Virus record (IMG/VR): IMGVR_UViG_3300010283_000228
Span: 1-15,333 of that record
Source: a virus
Taxonomy: Duplodnaviria > Heunggongvirae > Uroviricota > Caudoviricetes
Reading direction: 5' to 3' (one strand)
Length of the DNA stretch: 15,333 nt
A program made the position numbers and the translations under genes. This document shows, piece by piece, positions 800 through 15,259 of the stretch. Positions within the stretch are counted from its first letter, which is position 1, and every line of letters begins with the position of its first letter. The notes below the pieces were generated by a model. The model made no database searches. It had not been told where the DNA came from and saw nothing but the letters and a program-made list of their open reading frames with translations.

Positions 800-842
800 T
801 TTAGGAGTAACAATAAAATTCTGTTTATAATGGCTTTCAATA

Positions 843-2048
843 TCACATATTCGCCAATCGAATAAAACTCGGCATCCTTGGATCGGTGAACTTATACACG
901 CCTCTACCCAGTCTTTTTATTGTCGCTCCAAAATCCTTTTTAATTAAGCGTCCTGTATAGTTACTCATACTTTGGTTGTTATATCTCTCTCCAGTATCTT
1001 GATATATCTGGTTTATCCATTCTTTAACGCCAAACTCCTCATTTTTAAACTTTGACGCTGAATATAGAATTTTTTTGTACACATCTGTTTTAGATGAACG
1101 AACAGCATCCTCATACTCTCTTCTTAGCCTACCTTCAGCATTCTCAACTGATTTTTCAATTGATTTATGGAAGATTTCAGAATTAATAACTTTGCTTGAA
1201 TCAACAATGGCAGCCTCAGCAGCCTCCTTGCAAAGGAGGTGAGTAAAATATGGAAAGCCATTGCTTATATCAACTATTTGATTTTTAATTTCATCGTCAA
1301 ACCTTAGTCCTAATCCCTTTTCTCCCAGACTGATTATTTCTAACAGATGCTTTTCATCAACCCCTCCCAGACAAACCTCATGCAGGCATCTATTAACAGA
1401 TTCATGCCCTGCCGTAAGGCTTTTACCATCCTTAGAAATTCCCACAAGCAATACTTTCAATTTCGAATTAAAATCGCTCAACTGCTTTATAAACTCTGCA
1501 ACAGCTTTCTTTATATCGTCTTCTAATACATCAAACTCATCTATAACGAGAACCCCCTGAATTATTCCAATAGTCGCTGCTGCCTTTCGAGGAGTTATTT
1601 CATCTCGTTCTATAGTTATTTTTTCTTCATAACCCACGTTACCAGTAAAGAAACTAAAAAACTTTGCAGATAAGCCTGCCTTTATTACTTTCTCTTCCTT
1701 ATACTTTTCCGGGTTTTGTGAGATAAATATTGCACATTCAGAGACGATATCTTTAAATTTAGTGTTAGTATCACACTTCACATTAAAATACTCACCTAAA
1801 AGTACGTTGTATTGCCTGCCACCAATAACTGTAGCATTAGCTAATGAGCTCTTTCCGATTCCTCTATCACCATATATCATACAATGCCTACCAGGAACCG
1901 TTAAATTATCTAAAATACTTCTCACTTCAGTATCTCTCCCCTTTAAATACTCAGGATTAGATATAGGAGTTGAAGGAGTATAATATTTATTCACATCATC
2001 TTTTTTTGCAAATTCTTGTGCATACTCTGCAAAAATATTCACATACAT
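843..2048 (-). CDS. stand-alone P-loop NTPase (AAA+/AAA_16-like ATPase domain with uncharacterised C-terminal region), 401 aa
   Basis: Long ORF with a GGAG Shine-Dalgarno about 6 nt upstream of the ATG at 2048. Translation shows Walker A GDRGIGKSS preceded by an LKGRDTE motif typical of AAA_16-type NTPases, and Walker B VLVIDEFD. Visibly AT-rich compared with the island backbone. Flanked by its own upstream and downstream terminators. Confidence 0.85.
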   Translation of the reverse strand: MYVNIFAEYAQEFAKKDDVNKYYTPSTPISNPEYLKGRDTEVRSILDNLTVPGRHCMIYGDRGIGKSSLANATVIGGRQYNVLLGEYFNVKCDTNTKFKDIVSECAIFISQNPEKYKEEKVIKAGLSAKFFSFFTGNVGYEEKITIERDEITPRKAAATIGIIQGVLVIDEFDVLEDDIKKAVAEFIKQLSDFNSKLKVLLVGISKDGKSLTAGHESVNRCLHEVCLGGVDEKHLLEIISLGEKGLGLRFDDEIKNQIVDISNGFPYFTHLLCKEAAEAAIVDSSKVINSEIFHKSIEKSVENAEGRLRREYEDAVRSSKTDVYKKILYSASKFKNEEFGVKEWINQIYQDTGERYNNQSMSNYTGRLIKKDFGATIKRLGRGVYKFTDPRMPSFIRLANM

Positions 2049-2224
2049 CTCCTTTTCATTAAAAATGATTAACCTACCACTTTCTGTTTTGCAACCGTTA
2101 CAAACTTCTTACGAGACTAAATATTTACGCATATCAAAGGAATGTTACGCACGCTCATATCCATCCCACGCTATCCCATTTTACATGAACATAAGTAAAA
2201 GCTCGCAACATCAGCATCAACAAA

Positions 2225-2243
2225 AAGCCTTACCCGTAGGCTT
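2225..2243 (-). terminator. possible weak terminator between the small ORF and the ATPase gene
   Basis: Stem aagcct (2225-2230) / aggctt (2238-2243) with loop tacccgt, followed on the minus-strand transcript by UUUUUG. Short stem, so low confidence. Confidence 0.35.
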
Positions 2244-2282
2244 AATGTTTGGCTTGGCTGTTGACTTACCGTAACGCTCCGC

Positions 2283-2462
2283 TCACCGTCGTGGCCTGTC
2301 CGGTTTCCGCCACTGATACGGCCTCACATCATCATGCTGGTGGCGTTCCTGTTGCAGCACAACGGAAACAGGCGCTGAACACCTGTTAATTTTGCTTGCT
2401 GGTTGTTTGATTTCGGCAATGCTGCGGATCATCTCCAGCATATCGGCTTCGGTGATGGTCAT
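2283..2462 (-). CDS. small hypothetical protein, 59 aa (below the ORF-track cutoff)
   Basis: Hand translation from the ATG at 2462 gives MTITEADMLEMIRSIAEIKQPASKINRCSAPVSVVLQQERHQHDDVRPYQWRKPDRPRR with TGA stop. AAGGTG lies about 7 nt upstream of the ATG. No recognisable motif. Confidence 0.3.
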   Translation of the reverse strand: MTITEADMLEMIRSIAEIKQPASKINRCSAPVSVVLQQERHQHDDVRPYQWRKPDRPRR

Positions 2463-2470
2463 GATTTACA

Positions 2471-2752
2471 CCTTAGGAAATCTTAGGGGCTGGTTGACAC
2501 TTTCCGGCTTAAGACCTTAACAAATCTTAACATCGCAGGTTGACACACTTGACACTTTTTCGCGAAAAACCTTATCAAACCTTAGCATTTCTGAGCATGG
2601 CAACTTGACACTTTTCGCGATTTTTTCGGCTTTTTGACGAGGTAAATCTGGCGCAAAGCCAGTAACGGCGGGGTTTACAGCGAGGTTGACACTTTTTCGC
2701 GTTCAGAGTGTAAAGTGTCAACCTGGCAAGCTGCTCAACTTGACACTTTTTG
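2471..2752. repeat. array of short repeats: at least six TTGACAC(T)TTTTCGCG units plus one inverted copy, interleaved with three CCTTA-N-AAATCTTA units
   Basis: TTGACAC at about 2494, 2541, 2549, 2606, 2687 and 2740; inverted GTGTCAACC at 2716-2724; CCTTAGGAAATCTTAGG at 2471, CCTTAACAAATCTTAACA at 2514, CCTTATCAAACCTTAGCA at 2570. All seen directly in the sequence. Sits immediately downstream of the wHTH gene and upstream of the 59-aa ORF and ATPase. Confidence 0.75.
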
Positions 2753-2755
2753 ATG

Positions 2756-3292
2756 TCATTGATGGTCTGATTTTTCCCATTCAGCCAGGGCGTTTAGCCC
2801 GGCTTCACTCCATGATTCCAGTTCATCGGGATAATCACCTGCAACATAGCAGAGTTCGCAACGTAGCATACGAATTGCCAGCCTGGCATTACCTCGCAAA
2901 TTGTATTTTTCAAAGTAATGCTGCCCTTCATCATCCTCAAGGCAGATAGCACCATCATCAAGAAAGAGCACTTCCCAGCCTAATTCCCCGGCTGCATACA
3001 GCACACGCTGCTGTATGTCATCGTCCGTTACTGGCGAAGGAATTTTACCGTCTCTGGCCTTAACTGCTTTCCAGAATTCGCCCCACGTCATTTCCAGCGT
3101 TCTTTCTGGCCACATTTCAGAAACGGTGTCTTTCCCTTGTGCCGGTGGGCTGTTCCGCTGCTCTGTCGCCTCCACATCAATTTTTTTGCCAGACATGATC
3201 ACTTCGCCTTTCTCGATCCAGTCGTAAACTGTCTGGCGGCTTACGCCTTTGTATTTGGCGTATTCGGCTTTACTCATCAACATGTAGCTCAC
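2756..3292 (-). CDS. winged-HTH DNA-binding protein with phage Nu1/small-terminase-like N-terminus, 178 aa (function uncertain: packaging-redirection or regulator)
   Basis: GAGGTG Shine-Dalgarno 6 nt upstream of the ATG at 3292. N-terminal KAEYAKYKGVSRQTVYDWIEKG aligns by eye with the lambda Nu1 HTH (KKQLADIFGASIRTIQNWQEQG) and also with the MerR/excisionase-type HTH. Acidic C-terminal half. Confidence 0.8.
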   Translation of the reverse strand: MSYMLMSKAEYAKYKGVSRQTVYDWIEKGEVIMSGKKIDVEATEQRNSPPAQGKDTVSEMWPERTLEMTWGEFWKAVKARDGKIPSPVTDDDIQQRVLYAAGELGWEVLFLDDGAICLEDDEGQHYFEKYNLRGNARLAIRMLRCELCYVAGDYPDELESWSEAGLNALAEWEKSDHQ

Positions 3293-3382
3293 CTCATGCG
3301 TATACGATAAAAAATAATTTCATGCGGAAAGGGAATGCGTTGTGGGTATGGAGGAAAGGGGCAATAACCGCCCCTTACTGAT

Positions 3383-3655
3383 TCAGTTGCGCCAGGATGG
3401 CTGGCTAAGCGTGGTTTTCATTACATCATTGACGACCTGTTTTACGATTTCTGTGTTGGCAGTCGTGCTTTCAACATCAACAAAGCCATAATCGCCAATT
3501 TCCACCGTCAGGGATTCCAGTTTCTTCCCTAGAGCATCAGGCAACTCTCCACTGAACCGGTGCTGAAGATTTTCCACCAGCAACGCCCTGAATGCCTCGC
3601 TGTTCTCTTTTTTCTGCCATAGCTGGCGTTTATCCACTCTGATATTTAATTTCAC
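3383..3655 (-). CDS. hypothetical protein, 90 aa, translationally coupled to the upstream 55-aa gene
   Basis: GTG start at 3655 overlaps the TGA stop of the upstream gene (GTGA), with GAGGTG about 5 nt upstream. Protein-like composition; no recognisable motif. Confidence 0.55.
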   Translation of the reverse strand: MKLNIRVDKRQLWQKKENSEAFRALLVENLQHRFSGELPDALGKKLESLTVEIGDYGFVDVESTTANTEIVKQVVNDVMKTTLSQPSWRN

Positions 3656-3819
3656 AGTCTCACCTCTTTAAGTGCCTTATCCATCAGTTGCCGGGCGATA
3701 ACATGAATCGACGGTGCCACACCAAGCACAGATTTCTGACGCTCTTCGTCCTGGATGCGTTGCAGGGCTTCGATCTGCCTCCGGGAAAGTAAAACTGGCT
3801 TTACTCCGTGATTTTTCAT
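3652..3819 (-). CDS. small putative DNA-binding protein, 55 aa (MKNHGVKPVLLSRRQIEALQRIQDEERQKSVLGVAPSIHVIARQLMDKALKEVRL)
   Basis: Internal ATG of the 107-aa track ORF, with AGAAGGGA Shine-Dalgarno 5 nt upstream. The N-terminal part of the track ORF is Cys/Asn-rich and runs through palindromic operator DNA, so it is judged non-coding. Perfect palindromes lie 20-70 bp upstream. Confidence 0.5.
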   Translation of the reverse strand: MKNHGVKPVLLSRRQIEALQRIQDEERQKSVLGVAPSIHVIARQLMDKALKEVRL

Positions 3820-3838
3820 GATGATCCCTTCTGAATGA

Positions 3839-3891
3839 CAATAATTGCAATTATTGCACAAATTGAAATGATACCAGAGACAATTGCAATA
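3839..3891. promoter_or_regulatory. operator-like palindromes upstream of the 55-aa/90-aa module
   Basis: Perfect 18-bp palindrome CAATAATTGCAATTATTG at 3839-3856 and a related AATTGCAATA at 3882-3891, just upstream of the Shine-Dalgarno of the 55-aa gene. Confidence 0.5.
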
Positions 3892-4097
3892 AATGAAACG
3901 AAAAGCATCAATAAACCAACCTTCGGCACTGAATGCTCTGATTTTTCTGCAAAGGTATGGCAGATGTTGGTGCATGCAAACATAAAGGCAATAGCAGAAG
4001 AAGCTGCGGGGAGTGAAAAGGGGAAGTTTTTATAAATACACGATTGTCGCCTCACTGCAGGTTAACAGCCACAAGCTCCATGATAATAACTTGTTAA

Positions 4098-4421
4098 TTA
4101 TTTCATCAGATTTTTCATTATTTGCGCGATTGAGTACACAAGCAAAAACTCGGCAGCCGCAAGAGTATAAAAAACATAAATTCGCTTAGCCCACCGACGA
4201 TGAAAGAACTCCTCAGCATGGCCGGATGTTCGAGATACAAGCCATGCACCTACTGCACACAGAGCAGGTGCAATGAGCACAGTTATAAACCAGATTGTGA
4301 TGCCCATCCCATGCCTACTGATAATAGCCATTGGTATTGCAAAAATGAATGTTAGAGCAGCATTAGCTAATAGAATATCTTTTAAAGTATTTTCAATTAG
4401 TTTTGCTAGATTATCTTTCAT
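4098..4421 (-). CDS. small integral membrane protein, 107 aa, three predicted hydrophobic helices
   Basis: Three hydrophobic segments of about 20 residues each (ILLANAALTFIFAIPMAIIS, ITIWFITVLIAPALCAVGAWLV, IYVFYTLAAAEFLLVYSIAQIM). TGGGGGA lies 4 nt upstream of the ATG. AT-rich. Confidence 0.65.
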   Translation of the reverse strand: MKDNLAKLIENTLKDILLANAALTFIFAIPMAIISRHGMGITIWFITVLIAPALCAVGAWLVSRTSGHAEEFFHRRWAKRIYVFYTLAAAEFLLVYSIAQIMKNLMK

Positions 4422-4451
4422 CTAATCCCCCACGTTGAACATTAATATATA

Positions 4452-4474
4452 AAAGCCCCTTACTAAGGGGCTTT
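4452..4474 (-). terminator. rho-independent terminator after the lipoprotein gene
   Basis: 10-bp perfect stem aaagcccctt (4452-4461) / aaggggcttt (4465-4474), followed on the minus-strand transcript by UAUAUAUU. Confidence 0.55.
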
Positions 4475-4485
4475 GCACGGATTGT

Positions 4486-5628
4486 TTAAAGGGAACTTTT
4501 TTTCGCCCCTTCAATTTCTGCCTGACAAATTTCGTCATTTGTAAATGAGTACTGCAGATAGACATATCCCTGAGTGGAATTGTTCGCTCTGGCCTCAATA
4601 GATATAGTATCAATATTGTTTTTTAATGGTATTTCTTTTGTTCCCTTCCATGTAGCAGATAAGAAGCGTTCTTTTTTGTTTAGCCCCCTCATCCAGTCCT
4701 GAGGATCTTTCCAAATTGAACCAGCCAGCAAAAAGTCTGTAGTATCAGCCTTTCCATACAGAGAACTTAAAGAATTACTCAATTCTTCAAACTTGGATTT
4801 AAGAGCCAATCCATAGCTATCAGTATCAATATTTTTTCCTAAAGCCCGTATTTGACATAAACCAGCTTTCGGGGAGATCAGCAAACCATACATTTCAAAA
4901 TCTGCGTTTTGCTTCGGTAATTTATCAGAAGTATACAGATTCACACTGTCTGGTAGTGGCTTGAGCTTAGCACCGATCATATCTTCGATGTTTTTCTGTG
5001 TAAGACCGGCTTCTAAGCCAAACGGACCATCCGCTGGCGGGAGTAAAGGAAGTTGCTCTTGGGAATTTTTGGCTGTTACTTCCGTTTCAGTACTGTTTTT
5101 TGCGTCATTAGCTTGTACTGATGCCAGCTTAACTTCAGCGAGGCCATACTTGGCTGTGAGGTACTTTTGCTGCAACATTGCCATGGTCTGCTCTTCAGTG
5201 GCAACAGTAGATAATTTTAGTACCTTTATCAGACCACCACTATACTGACGAGCATCAGCTTTGGCTTCGTTGATTTTTGCATCTAAGCTGTCAATTTCAG
5301 TTTTAATTGAAGCCGCAAGCTCAGGATCAGGTTTTACTCCAGATACAACAACATCAATTTTGGCACCTGATTCAATAGCATTAATACGCTGTTCCAAAAG
5401 CGCTTTATTAGTTCCTAATATTTCCAGTCTTGCTGTTGTCAGATTTTTTATCAACCCACCAGAAAACTGCTGGTCAACTTCCTTAGCTGCTGATATTTCA
5501 CCTTCCGTTTGCGACAGTTCAGCTTTAAGAGCAGCTACTTCCTGTTTCTGTTCTGGAGTTAACTCTTCTGGCCCACATCCGGTTAACATTACTATACCGA
5601 CTAATGTTGCAATTAAAGTTTTATTCAT
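4486..5628 (-). CDS. lipoprotein, 380 aa, with internally repeated SGGLIK-containing module and uncharacterised C-terminal domain
   Basis: N-terminus MNKTLIATLVGIVMLTGC is a signal peptide ending in a lipobox (LTGC). Two related segments, QQFSGGLIKNL and RQYSGGLIKVL, each sit in a charged, helix-prone context. Long protein-like ORF, AT-rich. Shine-Dalgarno is weak (AGGG 2 nt from the ATG). Confidence 0.8.
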   Translation of the reverse strand: MNKTLIATLVGIVMLTGCGPEELTPEQKQEVAALKAELSQTEGEISAAKEVDQQFSGGLIKNLTTARLEILGTNKALLEQRINAIESGAKIDVVVSGVKPDPELAASIKTEIDSLDAKINEAKADARQYSGGLIKVLKLSTVATEEQTMAMLQQKYLTAKYGLAEVKLASVQANDAKNSTETEVTAKNSQEQLPLLPPADGPFGLEAGLTQKNIEDMIGAKLKPLPDSVNLYTSDKLPKQNADFEMYGLLISPKAGLCQIRALGKNIDTDSYGLALKSKFEELSNSLSSLYGKADTTDFLLAGSIWKDPQDWMRGLNKKERFLSATWKGTKEIPLKNNIDTISIEARANNSTQGYVYLQYSFTNDEICQAEIEGAKKSSL

Positions 5629-5762
5629 ATCCCTATTCCAAATGAAAATATTCAGATTAATCTTATCAGGAACCCAGATGCAATTGAATATTCATCTGCT
5701 CAGCAACGTAGTAGATTTCCTCAGAAAGCATCAACAAAAAACCAAGAGAATCCCATCCTCTG

Positions 5763-6050
5763 TTACTGACTACAATTGTTCTTTTTTTGGTATTTCCTGA
5801 ATGCCTCACCATTGGGCTGATGTAATCCCATCCCGGCATGTGCCCGGCTGATGGTTTCGCGCATCTCCCCGAAATTATCCTGCCTTGCTGGTGGGCGTGC
5901 TGCCTTGTGGATACATTCCGCGCGACGTTTTGCCGCCTGTTCCCGTGCCTTGTCATCATTCGCCAGCATGATGACCTCAGCCCACCGCGCCGCCGCTCTC
6001 CGGTACAGACCACGCGCTTCCAGTGCTTCCGCTTTGCTGTCGTGAATCAT
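5763..6050 (-). CDS. PerC/Pch-family-like small transcriptional activator, 95 aa
   Basis: N-terminal AEALEARGLYRRAAARWAEV matches the remembered PerC/Pch signature (A..LE..GLWRRAA..W). ATG at 6050 overlaps the TGA of the upstream FinO-like gene (ATGA). Confidence 0.65.
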   Translation of the reverse strand: MIHDSKAEALEARGLYRRAAARWAEVIMLANDDKAREQAAKRRAECIHKAARPPARQDNFGEMRETISRAHAGMGLHQPNGEAFRKYQKKNNCSQ

Positions 6051-6589
6051 GCGCCTATTGTCTCCTTTGCTGCCCGGCGCTGGCGTTTGCGCTTCTCATT
6101 CAGCGCCACCAGCCGCGTTTCTGCGTCCTGTTGTTCCTGTGGTGTCACCTCGCCGCACGGCTGGCCTTTCAGGTCGTAGCGTACCCCACCAGCCATTAAG
6201 GCGCGGTAATAGCGCGGACACTGCGCATAAGATGCCAGCGTCGCACGCAATGCCCCTGGCCCGAATGCCAGCCCCCTGACGGCGAGATCCTGCATCAGGT
6301 CGTCGAATATCCCCACCTTAAGCGGCTTCAGTGCTTCCCGGCTGAATAAGTCAGGCCACAACTCAGTGAGGCGGTTAACGCGCCTGCGGTTTTTGCGCTG
6401 GCGTTTGGTCATATGCCGCCACGGTGTCGCCCCTGTAGGCTTCTGCTGCGCTTTCTGGTTACCGGGCATCACTTTATGCGCCGATGTGGTTTTATCCTGC
6501 TCCTGTGCCGCCTGCGTCGTTTTCTGCGGCGTGCCGTAAATACCTTTTGGTTTTCTGTTAATGGTCAGCTTAGTCATGCTTTGCCCCAT
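6047..6589 (-). CDS. ProQ/FinO-domain RNA-binding protein, 180 aa (alternative start at 6577)
   Basis: Segment WPDLFSREALKPLKVGIFDDLMQDL...YAQCPRYYRALMAGGVRYDLKGQPCGEVTPQEQQDAE aligns by eye with the E. coli ProQ N-terminal FinO domain ([55 protein letters not shown]). Basic N-terminal tail. Confidence 0.8.
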   Translation of the reverse strand: MGQSMTKLTINRKPKGIYGTPQKTTQAAQEQDKTTSAHKVMPGNQKAQQKPTGATPWRHMTKRQRKNRRRVNRLTELWPDLFSREALKPLKVGIFDDLMQDLAVRGLAFGPGALRATLASYAQCPRYYRALMAGGVRYDLKGQPCGEVTPQEQQDAETRLVALNEKRKRQRRAAKETIGA

Positions 6590-6595
6590 CGTTAC

Positions 6596-6933
6596 AACTG
6601 TCTACCAACTGTCTACCGATATAATTGATTGATTTATTTAATGTTATTAACACATAACAAAAAAACAATCTGCAAACTGTCTACCAACGGTCTACCGCAT
6701 TAATACATTGATAATTAATGATTTTTACTAAATGGTAGACAGTGTAGACAGTTAAAAGAGAAATTTAAAAAATGCCCCCTTAACTATCTGTTTTTTATAT
6801 ACCCCCCGTGGTTTAGGAATATAGAAATAACTGTCTACCTCTCTACCACATTGAAAATATCTTTATAATTCAAAATATTAATTGGTAGATGGTTGGTAGA
6901 GGGTTAAGTGAATCTGTCTACCAACCGTCTACC
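6596..6933. repeat. iteron array (about 12 copies of AACTGTCTACC in direct and inverted pairs) with AT-rich spacers; candidate replication origin
   Basis: Tandem direct pairs at 6596-6617, 6675-6696, 6829-6847 and 6914-6933; inverted pairs GGTAGACAGTGTAGACAG at 6734-6751 and GGTAGATGGTTGGTAGAG at 6884-6900; AT-rich stretches between. Lies immediately 3' of the primase gene. Confidence 0.75.
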
Positions 6934-6960
6934 TTTACGTTTCAGCTTATAAATTTCGTA

Positions 6961-8766
6961 TTATGTTCTGTCGTTAATCCCTGTAGCTGCTGGCAACCAG
7001 CCATCAGCATCATCATCTAACAGAACATTTGTTATCACTCGCCCTTTATCCGGGCCTTTAGTGCATTTAGCCCGCTTATACTCCTTTCCGTATTCCGCCA
7101 TAGCTCCTGGCATATCAGTACCAAAGCGTGTCAGTGATACTGGTTTTCCCAGGCCATGCGCTGACATATAGGCTAAATAAGCATGATACAGGTATCGCCT
7201 CGGGCTAAATGGCACTATTTCCGCATTGCCCACCATCATTCCTTCACATTTAACCAACGACATCAGATAGCCGCAAAAGTCCACCAGTGAATCACCTTCG
7301 CGCTTTATCAACAGCGCTTCTTCTGATTTTTGCTGCTCATAAAGTAGTCTTTTAGCTTCGTCCTGGTCGGTAAATCGTGTTAGCAAATGGCGAATCACTA
7401 CCGCCAGTTCGCCTTCTATCTTTTCCGCCAGCATGGGATCGCGTTCGTTCTCCGGTACGACCTCAGAGAAATTAAATATCACCCTACGACGCGAGATCCC
7501 CCCGCTTCGGTCACTGAATGACATGGCGTTATTGTTTACCGCAAGCACTACTGCCGGAATACGTGTGGAGTAGGGGGCTTTATGTTTCGGATCAATTGCC
7601 ACCTTGTCGCCGCCAGTAATTGCCTTAATTCCTGCACCATCGCCAGCGTAGCGAGTCATATCCGGCATGATAATCAGCGAAAAGCCAACTACTAACGCGC
7701 GTTCCCTTGCGTCTTCCAGAGCCTTCATGCTTGCCGATACTGTGTTGGCCTTACCCGCCAGCATGGTACAAATCTCAGCCATCACACTTTTACCGCTTCC
7801 GCCTGGGCCTGTTACCTCAAGGAATAACTGCCAGTCGTACCGGTTCGCCAGCACCATGAATAATGCCGCCAGTACGCGATCAGCTTTACGATCATTATCT
7901 GCCACCGAACGACGCAGCCACTTCCAGAAATTCGGCGCATGTGTTGCCAGCGTTTCCCCCTCTGCTGGTGGGCTGAACGGTAATTCACTGGCATTTAACA
8001 ACCAGTCATTTTTGTTATGCTCCCGAAAATTTCCCGTCCGGGTATCAAATACCCCGTTACTGAATCCAATAAGATTCCTGTCTGCCCCGCCCATAACAGG
8101 CAGGCTCAATTTCATTGTGTCTACGGCAAATTTAATGGCGTTTTGCGAATAACTGATTCCAGCATCAATAAAAATCTTCGCCATAGACCGCTGGAGTTCC
8201 TTATCAGATACAGGCACCCAGACAATTCCGTTGTAATGGTGAACTACATCAGAATCATCATTTATAGCCAGTGCTCTTCCATAATATTCAAGTAACACTT
8301 CCCCTCTCTGGCTGGCTCCCATCTGATTTAGTGCTGGCCTGGATAGGTCAATATTTTTTGTGGCTAATTTCATCGCTGAAACTTCCCCACTCTCTGCCTG
8401 TTCGCGGATCCGTTGCAGGTAGTCGCGCCAGTTTTCCGGCTCCCGGTCGGTGATACCTTTGTATAATTTCGCGTCCTGTACACCAGCCAGCGCCAGCTTT
8501 TCAGCAATAGCATTGATCTGGATTGGCTCTATCTCCCCCGCGAGATAGACACGTGCAAAGCGGCGTTTCTCGTCAATAATGCGGATATTCGCCAGGTCTG
8601 CCAGTTGCTTTGGCCCCAGATAAACAGGTGGCACGTTATCGCCGTGTTTTCGTCCTTCGCTTTCAATCCAGTGTTGAGCATGGGCGTAAGCATCCGTCCC
8701 GGCAAAAATGATTACCTCGGTGAATTTATCCTTCGGCTGATATTTTAAATTCGGTGCGTTTTTCAC
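6961..8766 (-). CDS. P4 alpha-like phage/plasmid primase-helicase (replication initiator), 601 aa
   Basis: Walker A GPGGSGKS in the C-terminal half. Overall resemblance to P4-family primase C-terminal regions is from memory of that family. GTG start at 8766 overlaps the upstream TGA, with GGGGAGG about 8 nt upstream. Confidence 0.88.
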   Translation of the reverse strand: MKNAPNLKYQPKDKFTEVIIFAGTDAYAHAQHWIESEGRKHGDNVPPVYLGPKQLADLANIRIIDEKRRFARVYLAGEIEPIQINAIAEKLALAGVQDAKLYKGITDREPENWRDYLQRIREQAESGEVSAMKLATKNIDLSRPALNQMGASQRGEVLLEYYGRALAINDDSDVVHHYNGIVWVPVSDKELQRSMAKIFIDAGISYSQNAIKFAVDTMKLSLPVMGGADRNLIGFSNGVFDTRTGNFREHNKNDWLLNASELPFSPPAEGETLATHAPNFWKWLRRSVADNDRKADRVLAALFMVLANRYDWQLFLEVTGPGGSGKSVMAEICTMLAGKANTVSASMKALEDARERALVVGFSLIIMPDMTRYAGDGAGIKAITGGDKVAIDPKHKAPYSTRIPAVVLAVNNNAMSFSDRSGGISRRRVIFNFSEVVPENERDPMLAEKIEGELAVVIRHLLTRFTDQDEAKRLLYEQQKSEEALLIKREGDSLVDFCGYLMSLVKCEGMMVGNAEIVPFSPRRYLYHAYLAYMSAHGLGKPVSLTRFGTDMPGAMAEYGKEYKRAKCTKGPDKGRVITNVLLDDDADGWLPAATGINDRT

Positions 8767-9077
8767 TTCTTACCTCCCCGCTCACGAATAATTTCACGTA
8801 CTGTCCTGATGCGTTCCGCGCCCGTGACGCTCATGATTTTGTCTATGTCGCTTAATTCTGCTGGTGGCGCTTTACTTACCAGGATGAATTCCCTTTCAAA
8901 GCGCATATGTGACGACACGCAGGGATGCGCATAACCTTTGCGGATATAGGTCACGCGAAAATCATCGACGGTTTTAATCGTTATCGTGCCGCCGTATTTA
9001 TCCCGGAAAATATCGCCGGGACGAATTTCAGGCCGAGAGAGACCGCTGACAGTAAAGCCAGAATTTTTCAGTTTCAT
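8763..9077 (-). CDS. hypothetical protein, 104 aa, coupled to the primase gene
   Basis: AGGAAA about 8 nt upstream of the ATG at 9077; stop overlaps the primase start. Protein-like basic composition. Confidence 0.6.
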   Translation of the reverse strand: MKLKNSGFTVSGLSRPEIRPGDIFRDKYGGTITIKTVDDFRVTYIRKGYAHPCVSSHMRFEREFILVSKAPPAELSDIDKIMSVTGAERIRTVREIIRERGGKK

Positions 9078-9081
9078 GGTT

Positions 9082-9282
9082 TTATTTTCCTGTCAGCAGT
9101 TCCGGTTTTATTTCTGCACGAATACAGAGTTCAGAAAAAAATTCAGGAGAACCAACAATCTCATTACTTTTCAGTCGGCGTTGTGATTTCACTTTCCCTT
9201 TATCCAGGTAAACCAGTACGCGTCCGGTGAAATCATCTGGCACATTAAGCACTACGGGTACATGCGCTTCATGATTATGCAT
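9082..9282 (-). CDS. hypothetical protein, 66 aa
   Basis: GGAGGA 8 nt upstream of the ATG; the start lies in an ATGCATAA stop/start overlap with the upstream gene. Confidence 0.55.
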   Translation of the reverse strand: MHNHEAHVPVVLNVPDDFTGRVLVYLDKGKVKSQRRLKSNEIVGSPEFFSELCIRAEIKPELLTGK

Positions 9283-9508
9283 GGCTTACATCCTCCGTGA
9301 ATTTTCTTCTGTAACGCGTCTCTGCCACATATTCCGCATAGTCCGACGCAATACTAAGAATCATTTCACCCTCTGACTTGTAGCCACTGGTATTGATAAG
9401 AAAATATGCAGCTTTCATCATGTCAGCAACGCTCAACAATGCGCCCGCTGCATCTTCCGGTGCGCCATCAAATTCCCGTTTCAGGGAATTAAAACGATCA
9501 TCACGCAT
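9275..9508 (-). CDS. hypothetical protein, 78 aa
   Basis: Chosen start is the internal ATG at 9508 (MRDDRF...), which has AGGGGGG 5 nt upstream and sits 2 nt after the upstream stop. The longer track ORF (start 9586) would overlap the upstream gene. Confidence 0.5.
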   Translation of the reverse strand: MRDDRFNSLKREFDGAPEDAAGALLSVADMMKAAYFLINTSGYKSEGEMILSIASDYAEYVAETRYRRKFTEDVSHA

Positions 9509-9510
9509 GT

Positions 9511-9867
9511 TTACCCCCCCTGAATGACCTGATAACCGCAACTGGTCAGCAATTCGATAAATTCCGGCAGTGTGCCGAAACAGCAATCATCACGCAGACG
9601 TTCGCGGGATACTTCAACGCCGTTTTCGTAGTGACTCACCATGCGTCCGGTAAAATGCAGATCATCATCGTGATGGCACGTTGACGGCTTAATCAGTCGC
9701 GCACGTTCCGCCAGTTCCAGCAATGCTTCAACGCTTCCGGCAATTGCACCATCCGGCAGGTGATAATTACTTACCACGCGTCCATTCTCCACGTTGACCA
9801 GTAGCTGCCCGGAAAATATCTCGTCAAACTGAATGCTGTTAAGGTCAGAAATTGACAGGTTATGCAT
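9511..9867 (-). CDS. hypothetical protein, 118 aa
   Basis: Start at the ATG at 9867 (MHNLSISD...), with AGGAGG 6 nt upstream and the ATGCATAA overlap with the upstream stop. Confidence 0.55.
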   Translation of the reverse strand: MHNLSISDLNSIQFDEIFSGQLLVNVENGRVVSNYHLPDGAIAGSVEALLELAERARLIKPSTCHHDDDLHFTGRMVSHYENGVEVSRERLRDDCCFGTLPEFIELLTSCGYQVIQGG

Positions 9868-10084
9868 GGTGCACCTCCTGTACATCAGCCATGATAATTT
9901 TTCCGGCCTTATCCAGTGCCTGATCGGCTTTCAGCTGCACAAATGCTAAATAATGGGAGATGCATTCTGATTCTCTGGCTGCGTGTTTATGCGCCACACC
10001 AGCGATAGCAGAAATCTCAATAAGTGAATCCATCAGCGTTTTGATAGCGTCTACCGCTGCATCAGGCCATGTTGCATTACACAT
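9860..10084 (-). CDS. hypothetical protein, 74 aa
   Basis: AGGAGGTGG upstream of the ATG at 10084; ATGTGTAA overlap with the upstream stop. Confidence 0.55.
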   Translation of the reverse strand: MCNATWPDAAVDAIKTLMDSLIEISAIAGVAHKHAARESECISHYLAFVQLKADQALDKAGKIIMADVQEVHHA

Positions 10085-10442
10085 GCTCCACCTCCTGGCG
10101 AATACGGGCAGCGAATACCATCACGCAGCCATCAGGAGATTGCTGGCGTGCTTCCTGTTCGCTGGTGGCCTCGATGTGAATCACGCGCGGTTGTGCCGTA
10201 CTCAGGGCGATAAAACGCCAGATAAAATTGTTTTCGCATTTCTGAATAAACAACGTGTTTTCTTCGCGCCCTTTCCATGTTGCCGAGATATAGCCCATGT
10301 CATTGAGCATCTCGCAGGCATCAACCAGCGTATCGGCGGCTACATGAACAGTGTTTTTACCGTCAGCCATGCAATCACGGTGCACCGCCAAGAAGGTGTA
10401 TATAAATTTAGGGTGAGTTTGGGTATGCTGTGCCCCAGCCAT
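10077..10442 (-). CDS. hypothetical protein, 121 aa (first gene of the leftward small-gene/primase operon)
   Basis: Internal ATG at 10442 with GAGGT 7 nt upstream, located just inside the divergent promoter region. It is the C-terminal in-frame part of the 512-codon track ORF. Confidence 0.45.
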   Translation of the reverse strand: MAGAQHTQTHPKFIYTFLAVHRDCMADGKNTVHVAADTLVDACEMLNDMGYISATWKGREENTLFIQKCENNFIWRFIALSTAQPRVIHIEATSEQEARQQSPDGCVMVFAARIRQEVEHV

Positions 10443-11615
10443 AATCGTTACCTCATTTAACGGTTTGGTTAGACGCCCCGCTACTGCCGCAAACAGTTCG
10501 GGGCGTTGTCGTTTATATCCTCTTACTGAGGTGTGATTTAAATTAAATTTAACTGAATCACAGGTCAAGTATTTTTTGTGATTCTTTTTTGTGTATACTG
10601 AATCACATCTTTTGTTTAGGAGAATGCACATGGCAAAAAACACTATCAACGACAAATCAAAACAGATTTCAATTCGTATCCCACATGATGCTTTTGAAGG
10701 CATGGAATCCGTAAAACTGGACGGCGAAAGCAACGCCGGATTCATAGTAACCGCCATGCGTGGTGAGATCGCCCGCCGCCAGGCAGAAGGAAGCGGAGAA
10801 AATCCCCTGGTTTCTTCGCTCAATGCACTGGCGCAGGTGGAAAAAATCGGAGTCAAAGCTGTCGAGGAGATCGGGCAGCTCGTCACCGTCGCACGTGAAG
10901 AACTCCAGCGCCGCAAGGCCAAAGAATCAGAATAATAACTATCATCGCCGTGGTGTGAGGAACTCCGGCGCATTGCTTTACAGGTACACAGAATGACCAA
11001 CAAAGAATCGACCAATACACCATCACCGGCACGGAAAAGACAGCGCAGAAAGATAACGTACGAATATGAGTCAGACAGATTCGCGCCCTGTGCGTTTATC
11101 CTTGAGAAATTCCTTAAAGAGTACAGGCGCACAAAAATGGGGTCGCATACCTGGAAAACATCGCGGCATGGCAATGTTAAAGAGCAGGAATAGCCCACCA
11201 GCAAGCCAACACACTGATCACATTGCCCACCAGCCGCAAATCTGGCATTGTTGGCGATGTGTTCAAGTGTGTAGCTTTCCCACTGGTGGCCCTCTGCGGT
11301 CGCCTTTGTTTTATCCAGAACGAAATTAGACATCAGATTGATCATCACCTTGCGACCTGACAAAATCGCATCAGTCGCGCCACCAGCAAAATTTTTTGCT
11401 TTCCGGACAGCGTGACCAACGACATTTTGCAGCAAAATATTCTGCATTTCTGGCGTGCTGTAGTAACGGTGATCAGCGCCTTCACTCTGTGCGACCACAA
11501 CGCTATAATCTGCCTCGTAGACAGTAAGCAATATGGCGCAGTAGGCTATTCGTTCACAAAGGCGCTCCGGCAACGGGGCGCTTTCTCTTTTTGTAACGGT
11601 CAGAGCGTTACACAT
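10077..11615 (-). CDS. 512-codon open frame; real translation start at 11615 but middle section probably not a genuine protein
   Basis: ATG at 11615 has GGAGGA upstream and the same ATGTGTAA stop/start overlap as the other coupled genes. The first ~140 codons look protein-like. The middle ~250 codons are Ser/Cys/Arg-rich and run antisense through the RHH gene and the AT-rich promoter region. No in-frame stop before 10077. Confidence 0.3.
   Translation of the reverse strand: MCNALTVTKRESAPLPERLCERIAYCAILLTVYEADYSVVVAQSEGADHRYYSTPEMQNILLQNVVGHAVRKAKNFAGGATDAILSGRKVMINLMSNFVLDKTKATAEGHQWESYTLEHIANNARFAAGGQCDQCVGLLVGYSCSLTLPCRDVFQVCDPIFVRLYSLRNFSRINAQGANLSDSYSYVIFLRCLFRAGDGVLVDSLLVILCTCKAMRRSSSHHGDDSYYSDSLALRRWSSSRATVTSCPISSTALTPIFSTCASALSEETRGFSPLPSAWRRAISPRMAVTMNPALLSPSSFTDSMPSKASCGIRIEICFDLSLIVFFAMCILLNKRCDSVYTKKNHKKYLTCDSVKFNLNHTSVRGYKRQRPELFAAVAGRLTKPLNEVTIMAGAQHTQTHPKFIYTFLAVHRDCMADGKNTVHVAADTLVDACEMLNDMGYISATWKGREENTLFIQKCENNFIWRFIALSTAQPRVIHIEATSEQEARQQSPDGCVMVFAARIRQEVEHV
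10533..10607. promoter_or_regulatory. divergent promoter region with two operator-like inverted repeats TGTGATT-N16-AATCACA
   Basis: TGTGATT at 10533 and 10578, AATCACA at 10556 and 10601, giving operators centred about 45 bp apart. A TATACT -10-like hexamer at 10594-10599 overlaps the second operator, upstream of the plus-strand RHH gene. Confidence 0.5.
10630..10935 (+). CDS. Arc/CopG-type ribbon-helix-helix DNA-binding protein, 101 aa (candidate island repressor)
   Basis: TAGGAGA Shine-Dalgarno 6 nt upstream of the ATG at 10630. KQISIRIPHDAFEGMESVKLDGE followed by SNAGFIVTAMRGEI fits the strand-helix-helix pattern of Arc-like repressors. Coiled-coil-like C-terminal half. Only plus-strand gene in the island, directly after the operator repeats. 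Confidence 0.55.
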   Translation: MAKNTINDKSKQISIRIPHDAFEGMESVKLDGESNAGFIVTAMRGEIARRQAEGSGENPLVSSLNALAQVEKIGVKAVEEIGQLVTVAREELQRRKAKESE

Positions 11616-12456
11616 GGCTGTTTTCCTCCATGCGACGGGCTAACCAACGCTGCGAAAGACGAATTAATTCAGCTTTCCGCTGGTGGTAGTCCAGGCCTAA
11701 CTCAATCAGCGTGATATTGCTCTGCTCAAGGTAAGAAAGGTGCTCAAGCTGCAACGTGCTCATGTGGTCGCGTGGTTCGCCTGTGATGCCGTTCGCCTGC
11801 GTCCACTGTTTTGCAGTCATGCCACCCAGCACGATACGCGCCAGCATATTGGCTTCCGTGGTGTAGTGGTGCTGGAGTGTGTTTTTACCCAGTTCAGCCC
11901 GGTACGCCTCCAGCGCGGCACACATCGGCTTAAAGTAGCTGGCAACGGAGATACGGGCTTTCAGTTCCCGGCGTAACGCTGCGGAACGCACTGGCGCTAC
12001 CTTGTGTAGCTCCTCCTCGCATTTGATGAAGTACTGACGAACGGCGCGGCCCTGTTCGGTGCGCTCGACCATCGCCAGTTCTTTCGCCATGTTCGTGGAG
12101 ATCAAATAGTCTTCACTGCGACGATCACCGCCGCGCTTTGTTGTCCAATCAAAATCAAACTGTTCAATATTTACACTTTGGTTCCCCCGTTTCGGGGAAT
12201 CAAAGTACAAATTATCTACAACTTCAAAATCCACGCCCTTTTTAAATCCGTACTCATCAATGCGTCCTTTAATCCAGGTTGTGAAATCACGCTTCACACC
12301 CAGCGCCTTATGCAACGCTCTGGCGCTAACAATATTGGTTTCACGTCCGCCAATAACGCCGGAAATAACCGGGATAATTTCGCCGAAATTTTGCAGATTC
12401 TGGTTTTCAGGCCGAACGAAGCCCTGCCCCTGTACGGGCGTTTTTCGCTGTTTCAT
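11608..12456 (-). CDS. phage antirepressor-like protein (AntA/Bro-N plus KilA-C-like regions), 282 aa
   Basis: AGGAG 5 nt upstream of the ATG at 12456. SARALHKALGVKRDFTTWIKGRI and later NMAKELAMVERTEQGRAVRQYFIKCEE resemble remembered antirepressor-domain signatures. Confidence 0.75.
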   Translation of the reverse strand: MKQRKTPVQGQGFVRPENQNLQNFGEIIPVISGVIGGRETNIVSARALHKALGVKRDFTTWIKGRIDEYGFKKGVDFEVVDNLYFDSPKRGNQSVNIEQFDFDWTTKRGGDRRSEDYLISTNMAKELAMVERTEQGRAVRQYFIKCEEELHKVAPVRSAALRRELKARISVASYFKPMCAALEAYRAELGKNTLQHHYTTEANMLARIVLGGMTAKQWTQANGITGEPRDHMSTLQLEHLSYLEQSNITLIELGLDYHQRKAELIRLSQRWLARRMEENSHV

Positions 12457-12534
12457 AAAAACTCCTGCTATCGAATTAAGTTACTTTTTATTTGCTGGTG
12501 GATAGTTGGGGCTTCTGGCCCCGTAGCCATTTAA

Positions 12535-12732
12535 TCAGGTAGCTGTTCCGCGTGATTCCGCAATACGCTGATTAATCCACTCGTCAATTTCACTCTCAAC
12601 GAAAGCAATAGCTCGCGAGCCAATTTTAACTGATGCAGGAAATTTACCTTGCCCCATAAGGCGATAAATCCATGCCTTGCTATATCCAGTTCTACGCTGA
12701 ACTTCCGTTAAACGAATAAGAGAGTTTGCCAT
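12535..12732 (-). CDS. alpA: AlpA-family prophage transcriptional regulator, 65 aa
   Basis: MANSLIRLTEVQRRTGYSKAWIYRLMGQGKFPASVKIGSRAIAFVESEIDEWI is the characteristic AlpA-type HTH. AAGGTGA 4 nt upstream of the ATG. Confidence 0.85.
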   Translation of the reverse strand: MANSLIRLTEVQRRTGYSKAWIYRLMGQGKFPASVKIGSRAIAFVESEIDEWINQRIAESRGTAT

Positions 12733-12987
12733 ATATTCACCTTGTAACGTCTATAAAGGTGTACATAGCTTGCATTAAGAAAAGTGATATTTATAGATGC
12801 TTACCATTATGAATGGCGAATACCATTTCAGTGAAATAGCTCCACCTTTTTTTAATAATGGCGTTTACTATTTTAAGTATCATGCTGACGTGAAACACGA
12901 AGAAAAATTACTGTTCTTACGATTTAATCTGCATTGGTGGTTACTTTTTTTTGAAAGGAAACCACCATTTTTCTGGAATAGCGACCA

Positions 12988-13704
12988 CTATTTAACTTTT
13001 TGTTTTTTTGGTCTTCTACCAATACGCTTCAGATGTTCAGGCCTTAAAATCAGATTCACAGCCCTAGCAACATTAGAACCCGCCCCCCTTTTTTTCAAAT
13101 ATTCAAGTACCTCATGCTCTGTCGGAGCCGTCTGTGGGTCATCTGGGTCATACGTCGACCATAGTTCTCTTATAGCATCCTGCACATACTCCAACCCATC
13201 ACTCTTATGCCCATAAGTACACAAATACTCGTCAGGATTAATTACCTGATGAGATGATTCAATGATTGCTGGCGGATTAACTTCCTTAACAGGTATAGGG
13301 CGAGGGCATCTCGCAAAATCAACGCTCTCATTTTTTATCCACTCATATAAAGAATGGCGACTAATTAAAGTTTTATCCTTGCTTATCTCATATGCACGAT
13401 CGGTCAGTTGCGCTGATGTCAGACGTTTGTACTCAATATCACAAACATTTCCCCAATTATCGTATTCAACTATTTCAGAGGTACATTCAACAGGAGTTAA
13501 GACACCACGACGGATGGCTGTTACCATTCCATTAGCCAACCCCCATGCCATTTTCCAACGTTCATGTTTATTATCTCTGACATGTTCAAGAGTAGGGTAA
13601 TCATAAGGATCAATTCCGGCCAACAATAAAGCGGCCTGGGTGATAGAAAACTCCTGTACTGTTCGCCAGTGGGATAAGTCAGGAATGTTTTCCACAATTG
13701 GCAT
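12988..13704 (-). CDS. hypothetical protein, 238 aa, in the variable slot between integrase and alpA
   Basis: Chosen start is the ATG at 13704 (MPIVENI...) with AAGGGGGAG 5 nt upstream; the track start at 13719 is a TTG. Basic C-terminal tail RIGRRPKKQKVK. No recognisable motif. Confidence 0.7.
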   Translation of the reverse strand: MPIVENIPDLSHWRTVQEFSITQAALLLAGIDPYDYPTLEHVRDNKHERWKMAWGLANGMVTAIRRGVLTPVECTSEIVEYDNWGNVCDIEYKRLTSAQLTDRAYEISKDKTLISRHSLYEWIKNESVDFARCPRPIPVKEVNPPAIIESSHQVINPDEYLCTYGHKSDGLEYVQDAIRELWSTYDPDDPQTAPTEHEVLEYLKKRGAGSNVARAVNLILRPEHLKRIGRRPKKQKVK

Positions 13705-13802
13705 ATTCTCCCCCTTCAAGCGGTCTAATGTTAAGGCCGAGCCAGCTCTGTTTGCATCAGCCTTTTTAGGTGCTCAAAGTCTACTACTGTATACTCAACC
13801 AG

Positions 13803-15017
13803 TCACCCGCATTTTCCGAACTCACCATGCACCACATTTCCGCCATGCTCGAGCGAATCCATATAGTCGGCATACCACTGGAGCATCTCCCGGCGACCAT
13901 CCAGATATTGCGCATGGTTGTATGTGCCACGAATTGAGTTTTTATCGACGTGTGCGAGCTGTGTCTCTATCCACGCGGTGTTATAGCCCTGCTCATGCAA
14001 AATGGTGCTCATGGTGTGCCGGAATCCATGACCAGTAACCTTTCCGTTATAGCCGATGCGTTTAAATACTTGGTTTATGCTAGCCTCGCTCATTGTTTTC
14101 CTTGGATCATTACGGCCGGGAAACATAAGCGGATAATTGCCAGTTAATTCTTTAATCTGCCCAATAAGCGAAAGAGCCTGCTTAGACAAAGGCACCACAT
14201 GAGGGCGACGCATTTTCATCCGTGAAGCAGGTATCTCCCAGATAGCCTTGTTGAGATCGATTTCATCCCATAATGCACCGCGCAGTTCGCCAGTCCGCAA
14301 ACCGGTGATAATCAGTAGACGAGCCGCCATAACAACCAATGCACTTCCTGAGTAACTGGACAATGCCTTGAAAAAATCAGGTAATTCTTTGGCTGTGAGG
14401 AAAGGATAATGATTAGATTCATGACCTTGCATCGCGCTGGTGAGATCCGGTGCAGGGTTATACTCAGCACGTCCAGTGACAATTGCATAGCGGAAAACCT
14501 CCCCGCATCGCTGCCTCACTTTTTTGGCTTTTTCGGTAGCACCGCGCCCCTCGATGCGCCGCAGCACATTCAGCAGTTCAAGTGGTTTGATTTCGGCGAT
14601 TGGTTTTTTGCCAATGTAAGGGAACACATCTTTGTTGAAGGCTTCGAGGATGTCTGAAGCATAACCAGCAGACCATTTTTTTAATTTGCTGCTGTGCCAC
14701 TCAAGGGCAATATCTTTGAAGGTGTTGTTTAACTGCGTTTCCCGGGCAATCTTTTCCTCTCGTTTCGCTTCCATCGGATCGATACCCCCAGCGATACCCC
14801 TTTTAGCTTCTTCACGTTTTGCACGAGCATCAGCCAAGGTAACTTCAGGATACACACCTAGTGCTAACAGCTTCTCTTTACCAGCTACACGATACTTGAA
14901 GCGCCAATATTTTCCTCCACTAGGTTTTACCAAGAGATACAGACCGCCACCATCAGCCAGCTTGTAAGCCTTCTCTTTTGGCTTGGCAGTGTCTATTTGA
15001 CGGGCATTGAGTTTCAC
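13803..15017 (-). CDS. int: P4-family tyrosine integrase, 404 aa
   Basis: N-terminus KPKEKAYKLADGGGLYLLVKPSGGKYWRFKYR is the hallmark of P4-type integrases. Catalytic-region motifs TGLRTGELRG, HGFRHT and RGTYNHAQY are present. GTG start with GGAGG 9 nt upstream. Located 166 bp from the 3' end of the tRNA. Confidence 0.9.
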   Translation of the reverse strand: MKLNARQIDTAKPKEKAYKLADGGGLYLLVKPSGGKYWRFKYRVAGKEKLLALGVYPEVTLADARAKREEAKRGIAGGIDPMEAKREEKIARETQLNNTFKDIALEWHSSKLKKWSAGYASDILEAFNKDVFPYIGKKPIAEIKPLELLNVLRRIEGRGATEKAKKVRQRCGEVFRYAIVTGRAEYNPAPDLTSAMQGHESNHYPFLTAKELPDFFKALSSYSGSALVVMAARLLIITGLRTGELRGALWDEIDLNKAIWEIPASRMKMRRPHVVPLSKQALSLIGQIKELTGNYPLMFPGRNDPRKTMSEASINQVFKRIGYNGKVTGHGFRHTMSTILHEQGYNTAWIETQLAHVDKNSIRGTYNHAQYLDGRREMLQWYADYMDSLEHGGNVVHGEFGKCG

Positions 15018-15048
15018 TTGGGGGTACCTCCACTAAACCGAACAGCAA

Positions 15049-15071
15049 ATACCCCCAAAAGTACCCCCAAT
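15049..15071. repeat. 23-bp direct repeat ATACCCCCAAAAGTACCCCCAAT, copy 2, with nearby inverted GTACCCCCAA-like copies; candidate integrase arm sites
   Basis: Identical to 251-273. Inverted partial copies TTGGGGGTAC at 15018-15027 and TTTTGGGGTAC at 15082-15092 flank it, between the integrase start codon and the tRNA. Confidence 0.6.
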
Positions 15072-15183
15072 TGACTGTAGATTTTGGGGTACTTAAGTAG
15101 ACGTCAAAAGACTAAAAGGGGCATTAATATACTGATTATAAGAGGTTTTTAAATACTTTAGTAGACTTGGGGAGACGTTAGAA

Positions 15184-15259
15184 TGGTGCCGATAAGAGGA
15201 GTCGAACCTCCGACCTTCGCATTACGAATGCGCTGCTCTACCAACTGAGCTATATCGGC
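15184..15259 (-). tRNA. thrW: tRNA-Thr (anticodon CGU)
   Basis: Reverse complement reads GCCGATATAGCTCAGTTGGTAGAGCAGCGCATTCGTAATGCGAAGGTCGGAGGTTCGACTCCTCTTATCGGCACCA: 7-bp acceptor stem, D arm, anticodon loop TTCGTAA (anticodon CGT), T arm GGAGG/TTCGACT/CCTCT, 3' CCA. The thrW symbol is assigned because CGU is the thrW anticodon in E. coli. Confidence 0.9.

Follow-up and report, generated by a model that had tools for sequence, protein, structure and literature searches.

The attachment site of P4 carries arm repeats that were described by Pierson & Kahn (1987, as cited in PMC7286903), and the P4 GenBank record, NC_001609, annotates the word TTGGGGGCA as 'attP arm sequence repeat'. An inverted copy lies at the start of int (3915-3926). 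Two tandem pairs flank the core (4078-4097), one (3942-3965) at a distance of 112 bp and the other (4151-4174) 53 bp beyond it, and one further copy is inside int. In the IntS-TorI module of KplE1, HK620, and Sf6, the arm sites of KplE1 IntS have been examined by mutagenesis, and both Int and the recombination directionality factor (RDF) repress intS (PMC2951348). Sf6 has pairs of the word GGGTAAAA on both arms, with inverted copies abutting the ATG. A 2023 study of helper-embedded PICIs (HE-PICIs; PMC10111431) reported a doubled motif of 12-bp period, of which each attP has two, one 81+/-2 and the other 132+/-2 bp from the crossover; its authors did not find the doubled motif in other PICIs. 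This arm-site design is already described, and the thrW island reported here is almost certainly a new instance of it.

The window, that is, the whole 15,333-nucleotide stretch of DNA analysed, is judged from its sequence to be an Escherichia satellite or PICI-like island of about 15 kb residing in thrW. Its gene set comprises int, AlpA, AntA, a D5_N/DUF5906/Pox_D5 primase-helicase, iterons, ProQ/FinO, and a STAND/Orc1-like ATPase, a constellation that is satellite/PICI-like according to PMC6092414; several of its open reading frames have no Pfam match. P4 differs in cargo, carrying sid, psu, delta, and alpha, whereas the cargo of the window is PICI-like, with alpA, the D5/DUF5906 primase, ProQ/FinO, PerC-type neighbours, and the STAND/Orc1-like ATPase.

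The int gene (13803-15017, minus strand) encodes a P4-type tyrosine integrase of 404 residues, with an arm-binding N-terminal domain at residues 3-88 and Pfam matches to Arm-DNA-bind_3 (3.6e-29), Phage_int_M (1.3e-34), and Phage_integrase (4.9e-26), a domain architecture that it shares with P4 Int. The N-domain has relatives 3JU0 and 3JTZ in PDB, and 2KJ8 is also a PDB relative of the protein. IntS of Sf6/CUS-3, about 49% identical, is among the closest phage matches, and the KplE1/HK620/Sf6 module represents the closest characterised integrase group, at 49% identity. ARAGORN identifies the integration target, a tRNA-Thr (CGT) gene, thrW, at 15184-15259, likewise on the minus strand, and the 166-bp spacer between the two genes is the attL arm. 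As in KplE1, int lies beside the tRNA gene and is transcribed away from it, and the control region of int therefore falls within attL. KplE1 resembles the window further in an attL arm with both Int arm-type and RDF sites, which in the window are predicted. The two differ in word and target (GGGTAAAA-type and argW in KplE1, GTACCCCCAA and thrW in the window) and in directionality factor, which is the Xis-like TorI in KplE1 and a candidate of AlpA/Vis type in the window. The gene for that candidate RDF or regulator, a member of the alpA family (12535-12732, minus strand; Phage_AlpA, 2.4e-19), lies about 2.0-2.6 kb from the start of int and is conserved in relatives.

Both ends of the island could be placed by comparison with other genomes. 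More than 4000 E. coli genomes match the window solely from about 15178-15184 rightwards, and for this reason the right boundary is set at the tRNA gene's 3' end; of 5426 complete E. coli genomes, about 860-920 have the junction between int and the tRNA gene. The attL core identity block at this boundary, AATGGTGCCGATAAGAGGA (15182-15200), consists of the last 17 nt of the tRNA gene and 2 nt more. At the far end, sequence from about 156 rightwards is common to all relatives, and the DNA to the left of that point differs: JNU and APEC E123 have a LysR remnant there, the window and A20 a fragment of an integrase. Comparison with attL and with the relatives identifies the far boundary as an attR core copy, AATGGTGC-GATAATAGGA, at 172-189. 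With the tRNA 3' end and this copy as its ends, the island spans about 172 to 15200. The attR core departs from the attL core by a 1-nt deletion and one G/T difference, and because of this one indel and one substitution the island copy in the window may have lost the ability to excise.

A preliminary description of this DNA had noted an exact 23-bp repeat near its two ends, and the repeat is as described: ATACCCCCAAAAGTACCCCCAAT occurs at 251-273 and again at 15049-15071, 14,798 bp away. It is the sole exact repeat of at least 18 nt in the window, where 1.7e-6 exact 23-mer pairs would be expected by chance, and the longest exact repeat in 100 shuffles of the window was 17 nt. Within each 23-mer the 9-mer TACCCCCAA occurs twice with a 12-bp period. 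Five exact copies of the 9-mer are found in the window, as against 0.07 expected from shuffles (none of 200 shuffles reached five), and all are confined to two short stretches near the island ends, with starts at 252, 264, 15050, and 15062 on the plus strand and a single minus-strand copy at 15018-15026. We designate the repeat at 251-273 (plus strand; words at 252-260 and 264-272) pair B, the putative tandem arm-type sites of the int-distal arm, and that at 15049-15071 (plus strand; words at 15050-15058 and 15062-15070) pair A, its counterpart on the int-proximal arm. Since the core copies bound the island, both 23-mers are internal to it, 61 and 112 bp from the cores. The centre of pair B is 81 bp from the centre of its core, with the 61-bp gap between pair and core copy; pair A is 112 bp from the tRNA end, its centre is 131 bp from the core centre, and it lies 31 bp upstream of the start of int. 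A literal search of the literature for the motif strings returned only unrelated eukaryotic primer and promoter matches.

The preliminary description also listed two inverted partial copies on the int side. The first, here R1, is exact (15018-15026, minus strand); it had been thought to overlap the start region of int, and this part did not hold, as R1 leaves the coding sequence free and fills the spacer between the Shine-Dalgarno sequence (plus-strand CCTCC, 15027-15031) and the GTG start codon at 15017, so that the minus strand reads GGAGG-TACCCCCAA-GTG. The second, R2, is located at 15083-15091 on the minus strand and reads TACCCCAAA, with one mismatch. R2 is retained in close relatives only, and it was rejected as a general site of the family, being absent or different in most lineages beyond them.

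Exact direct repeats that bracket int and the cargo could themselves be taken for attachment-site repeats, in which case crossover would occur within the 23-mers and the element would measure 14.8 kb. Island-specific DNA, however, reaches past both copies to the cores at 172-189 and 15182-15200, the two pairs are unlike each other in relatives, and in a circular relative they are separate, 188 bp apart, with a tRNA-like core between them. We regard the chance that the 23-mers are crossover sites as negligible; as an att core or a target duplication they are ruled out by the boundary comparisons together with the circular attP.

That relative (L094) was found by scanning viral contigs for the core-plus-arm pattern. 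It is a contig of 12,914 bp with an exact 77-bp terminal overlap, giving a circle of 12.8 kb, and across its junction the int start is followed by the inverted copy and pair A, then, after 110 bp, by AATGGTGCCGATAATAGGA and, 59 bp further on, by pair B. This junction is the predicted attP, with both arms contiguous around a single core. Its core is the 19-mer of the window attL with T instead of G at 15196. The int region is 85% identical to the window at the nucleotide level, and the attP is one seen in that relative. A tandem duplication can also give rise to a circular contig. Two other contigs contained hybrid junctions from tandem arrays, one of which joins an int and arm of the GGGGGCA class to an island of the GGGGGTA class.

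The locus has the plan predicted for a P4-type attP, in which a tandem pair stands on either side of the core and an inverted copy lies at the start of int; attP of the Sf6/KplE1 type follows this plan too, with the word GGGTAAAA. From core to pairs, the gaps of the window measure 112 and 61 bp; those of P4 are 112 and 53 bp, and those of the circular relative 110 and 59 bp. P4 and the window agree in plan, in orientation, in the 12-bp period, in an inverted copy abutting the MKLNARQ start, in having a copy inside int, which for the window is a possible one, and in a core formed by the 3' end of a tRNA gene, and their words are one base apart (TTGGGGGCA vs TTGGGGGTA). The targets differ, tRNA-Leu in P4 and tRNA-Thr (thrW) in the window. 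Two co-oriented pairs with a 12-bp period are likewise the plan of the HE-PICI doubled motif, to whose spacing the 81 and 131 bp of the window correspond, but the HE-PICI word is TGTATTGC and the targets are late genes of prophages rather than a tRNA gene. The GTACCCCCAA words are, with high probability, arm-type sites to which the P4-type tyrosine integrase of the island itself binds. The preliminary description had proposed arm-type sites flanking the core, with one set at either end of the element once it has integrated. The proposal is supported by the internal position of both 23-mers relative to the cores, by an Int with an arm-binding N-domain, by a layout that equals the annotated attP arm repeats of P4, by the flanking of one core by both pairs in the circular relative, and by the co-variation of the word at all sites and with residues of the N-domain that is documented below.

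On this basis we infer the following cycle, in which binding and bridging by Int are conditional throughout. The excised circle would carry a single attP of about 285 bp, ordered as pair B, about 60 bp, a 19-bp core identical with the thrW 3' end, about 112 bp, pair A, about 22 bp, and the inverted site at the int start. A heterobivalent Int would hold the core through its catalytic and core-binding domains and the arm words through its N-terminal beta-sheet domain, so that its protomers link the arms to the core in a bent intasome in which IHF probably takes part. Integration into thrW would split attP, sending pair B to the far end (attR, 251-273) and leaving pair A and the inverted sites beside int and the tRNA gene (attL, 15018-15092); excision would probably also involve an AlpA/Vis-like factor bound at the GTCTAC words of attL. 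The proposed attP resembles that of lambda, in which a heterobivalent Int also bridges arms and core and integration also splits the arm sites between attL and attR. The lambda N-domain, however, belongs to another family, the spacing and orientation of the lambda arm sites (P1, P2, and P'1-3) are unlike those of the window, and lambda int is transcribed towards att with no autoregulation through attL. The established picture of site-specific recombination is unchanged by these results.

The same sites occur in the same places in JNU, in a P4-like satellite (L005), in a defence island (L006), in a PICI-like island (L007), and in a remnant of the Vat island (L008), despite quite different cargo. 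Between core and pair, L005 shares only about half of its sequence with the window, yet pair B is kept; A20 has an intact 23-mer in flanks that have diverged. In L006, the most diverged E. coli relative (about 80%), both tandem copies and the inverted copy have shifted together from TACCCCC to TGCCCC(C). A locus in E. ruysiae (L009) has an Int 100% identical to that of the window, and its match to the window is mosaic, at 95-99%. The comparison of att regions suggested in the preliminary description was extended to 79 loci from other species (L009-L087), with integrases 61-100% identical, for a set of 84 loci from 79 species counting those of E. coli. About 70 of the 84 have the layout, a tandem pair of 12-bp period standing at -53/-41 and an inverted copy at -9 relative to the start of int. 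The elements occupy seven tRNA genes (Thr, Arg-TCT, SeC, Gly, Ser, Arg-CCT, and Phe), and int starts 164-166 bp from the tRNA 3' end in most loci, whichever of the seven is used, a constancy that implies a strongly constrained arm length.

The word itself is lineage-specific. GGGGGTA, GGGGGCA, (T/G)GTATAG, GGGGGCC, TGGTAT, and others are found, and the tandem and inverted sites always change in concert. In the 11 elements whose far end is included in the fetched DNA (at tRNA-Thr, -Gly, and -Arg), a tandem pair lies about 81 bp inside the core copy. This pair B has the lineage's own word, as in the GGGGGCA element L029 and the TGTGTAT element L067; a mixed pair is found in one of the 11, L032. 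Comparison across the loci shows that the doubled-motif geometry is general and the word specific to the lineage. A practical rule for finding the arm sites of P4-family elements follows the same geometry: tandem pairs of 12-bp period about 81 and about 131 bp from the crossover, with an inverted copy at the int start.

Word class corresponds to a signature in the arm-binding domain of the integrase. All 42 GGGGGTA loci have Leu at residue 29, Leu at 50, and Leu, Val, or Ile at 53, while all 23 GGGGGCA loci, P4 included, have Glu or Gln at 29, Arg at 50, and Phe at 53; the Leu29/Leu50 of the window Int thus stands against a Glu/Arg signature in P4. Residues 29, 50, and 53 are the sole columns within residues 1-95 that discriminate the two classes, and the GTATAG class has a third N-domain signature. 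In a tree of the catalytic part alone, proteins cluster according to tRNA target and the word classes are scattered (17 parsimony changes), and two integrases, L038 and L084, have nearly identical catalytic domains with different N-domains and different words. The words appear, from this co-variation, to co-evolve with the arm-binding domain independently of core and tRNA specificity. Part of the association between residues and word may reflect linkage or shared ancestry, because the coding region for the N-domain lies within 60 bp of pair A and R1. The agreement at pair B is a stronger argument than that of the int-side words, because pair B lies beyond the tRNA-specific core; this agreement beyond linkage was assessed in the same 11 elements, of which L032 is the mixed one. 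A single-sequence AlphaFold model of Int residues 1-100 has a pLDDT of 55, and the order of secondary structure alone was used from it. The model has a three-stranded sheet followed by a helix and would put residue 29 in the first strand and residues 50 and 53 in the third, a placement on the DNA-contacting sheet that is weak because of the low pLDDT.

If the three residues read the word, the code would pair Leu29/Leu50/(L,V,I)53 with GGGGG-T-A, Glu or Gln29/Arg50/Phe53 with GGGGG-C-A, and the third signature with TGTATAG. We put forward, tentatively and as somewhat less probable than its opposite, that arm word and N-domain make up a swappable module of a specificity code that has been repeatedly exchanged among catalytic domains targeting different tRNAs. 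Residues 29, 50, and 53 are candidate specificity residues that can be tested directly or used to engineer orthogonal integrases. Islands that occupy the same tRNA site could be orthogonal by virtue of distinct words, each tandem resident then excising on its own, and a metagenomic contig, L091 (IMGVR_UViG_3300007747_000137), has GCA-class and GTA-class islands in tandem at thrW. As an observation on the architecture of such arrays, positions 1180-1440 of that contig join an int and arm of the GGGGGCA class via a core copy to an island of the GGGGGTA class. In L093 and L008, a decayed Vat-island int and a half-deleted pair A are followed by another core copy and pair B.

The tandem words might instead be bound by AlpA, by another island protein, or by a host factor. 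The HE-PICI study (PMC10111431) leaves the Int arm domains, AlpA, or an unknown protein as possible binders of its doubled motif. In our set, word class follows Int residues 29, 50, and 53; AlpA type follows a different word, TCTAC or TCAAC, and one AlpA type is found with GTA, GCA, and GTATAG Int words. Moreover, L006 keeps the words although tblastn found no AlpA homologue there and none is annotated, and the P4 equivalents are annotated as attP arm repeats. Recognition by a protein other than the integrase is accordingly improbable in our estimation, and the comparison favours Int over AlpA as the probable reader of the HE-PICI doubled motif as well.

A second set of repeated words lies between the core and pair A (15077-15176, minus strand), reading (A/G)TCTAC in the orientation of int and recognised by comparison across loci. 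On the plus strand these are GTAGAT at 15077-15082, GTAGAC at 15097-15102 and at 15161-15166, and GGAGAC at 15171-15176. Across species, the TCTAC or TCAAC class of these words tracks AlpA type and tracks neither Int word nor tRNA. This points to AlpA/Vis-like sites at these positions, as in KplE1 and P4, and the (A/G)TCTAC words are likely to be sites for an excisionase or regulator. A separate set of repeats, iterons of the word AACTGTCTACC in direct and inverted orientation at 6596-6949, between the ProQ/FinO gene and the primase-helicase gene, probably marks a replication origin. The iterons share a hexamer with the attL GTCTAC words, and a functional link between the two was considered and rejected because the loci show no covariation. 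Relatives have widely different iteron words, which vary freely among loci that share one arm word, and the resemblance is for that reason regarded as coincidental.

The placement of R1 and pair A raises the question of regulation. The words could be purely transcriptional operators of int, bound by Int or by another repressor, with no role in recombination: R1 sits between the Shine-Dalgarno sequence and the start codon, pair A lies 31 bp upstream of the start, and P4 Int, KplE1 IntS, and PAI I536 IntI all repress their own genes, the first and last by acting on their own promoters (PMC7286903). Left unexplained by operators alone are the identical tandem pair 14.8 kb away, fixed about 81 bp from a core copy in 11 elements, and the constant 112-bp distance from pair A to the core across tRNA targets. 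An exclusively regulatory function is thus a slim prospect. A regulatory role in addition to recombination is reasonably likely, at about even chances. R1 would probably let Int damp its own expression; by analogy with P4 and KplE1, whose Int proteins repress their own gene, autoregulation through R1, and an operator role for this copy, is plausible. The detail differs, for P'1 of KplE1 overlaps a -10 box whereas R1 occupies the spacer between Shine-Dalgarno sequence and start codon.

Control might also act on the messenger, the tandem words pairing with the inverted copies in the int leader to hide the Shine-Dalgarno sequence and start codon. The minimum free energy fold of the 111-nt leader consists of two hairpins, R2 with the tandem word D1 and D2 with R1, the second of which buries the region from Shine-Dalgarno sequence through start codon. 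The concerted changes of the words leave such pairing feasible in all lineages. A promoter scan upstream of int gave one weak consensus match, at 15153-15126 on the minus strand; it lies upstream of all the words and, as the sole promoter-like match, would place them all in the leader. The fold, at -34.3 kcal/mol (z = -1.97), is however only weakly better than those of shuffled sequences, 10 of 200 of which fold as well, and any inverted protein sites in a leader would pair, so that pairing alone is not diagnostic. Pair B has no inverted partner and is outside the int transcript, and neither the 12-bp tandem duplication nor the correlation with N-domain residues is explained by a hairpin. As an account of the words in itself, the hairpin is most improbable; as an added layer of control it is possible but doubtful. 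R1 could be both a DNA operator and one half of a hairpin that hides the ribosome-binding site.

A possible third tandem pair, GATACCCCCAGCGATACCCC, is found inside int at 14778-14800 on the plus strand. It has the 12-bp period, and it coincides with codons for the atypical peptide RGIAGGI and with a rare AGG codon. It is restricted to the thrW/GTA clade, four members of which have lost the pair through synonymous changes. These features are suggestive of a further arm-type pair within int.

The functional ends and the attP anatomy are hereby fixed for a very common family of Escherichia thrW islands, and several observations concern the core copies of that family. All chromosomal far-end core copies in E. 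coli (window 172-189; L002-L005, L007, and L095) share the 1-nt deletion GGTGC-GAT, whereas the circular attP of L094 and the tRNA gene have GGTGCCGAT. The deletion in attR may be an old scar that is reused as islands turn over. The thrW gene of the window has a compensatory change in the T-stem, from U-A to G-C (GTCGGAGG...CCTCTTATC), at 15196 and its partner at about 15210, and none of 26 further thrW loci, drawn from many genera, has it. Of the two altered bases, one falls within the att identity block and makes attL unlike attR.

Positions 1-171 of the window encode the 3' end of another tyrosine integrase, on the plus strand with its stop at 84, directed at the far-end core copy. In ARS-C101, a full-length homologue closes a lambdoid prophage with early genes of the ymfK/ymfL/yfdPQ type, which stands in tandem with an island of the thrW family. 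From this tandem arrangement, the copy at 172-189 is probably a hybrid prophage/island junction. Elsewhere the integrase fragment is a pseudogene, or a LysR remnant is found in its place.

Within the island, TTGACAC(TTTTT) is repeated in both direct and inverted orientation (families D2, D8, and D10; pairs I8 and I17) at 2494-2755, in a cluster that adjoins an ORF of 178 aa with a helix-turn-helix (2756-3292); the cluster may be an operator or promoter array. Cargo of the thrW family is variable and includes defence and virulence functions, among them the Vat toxin island, Dpt, Abi, GapS1, and STAND ATPases. At the cargo end beside attR (843-2048 in the window, and the corresponding slot in relatives) gene content varies, with an enrichment of defence-type genes: a STAND/Orc1-Cdc6-like ATPase occupies it in the window and JNU, GapS1 in APEC E123, DptFGH with AbiE in CFSAN018748, NACHT and HEPN proteins in L006, and a toxin-antitoxin pair in L005.
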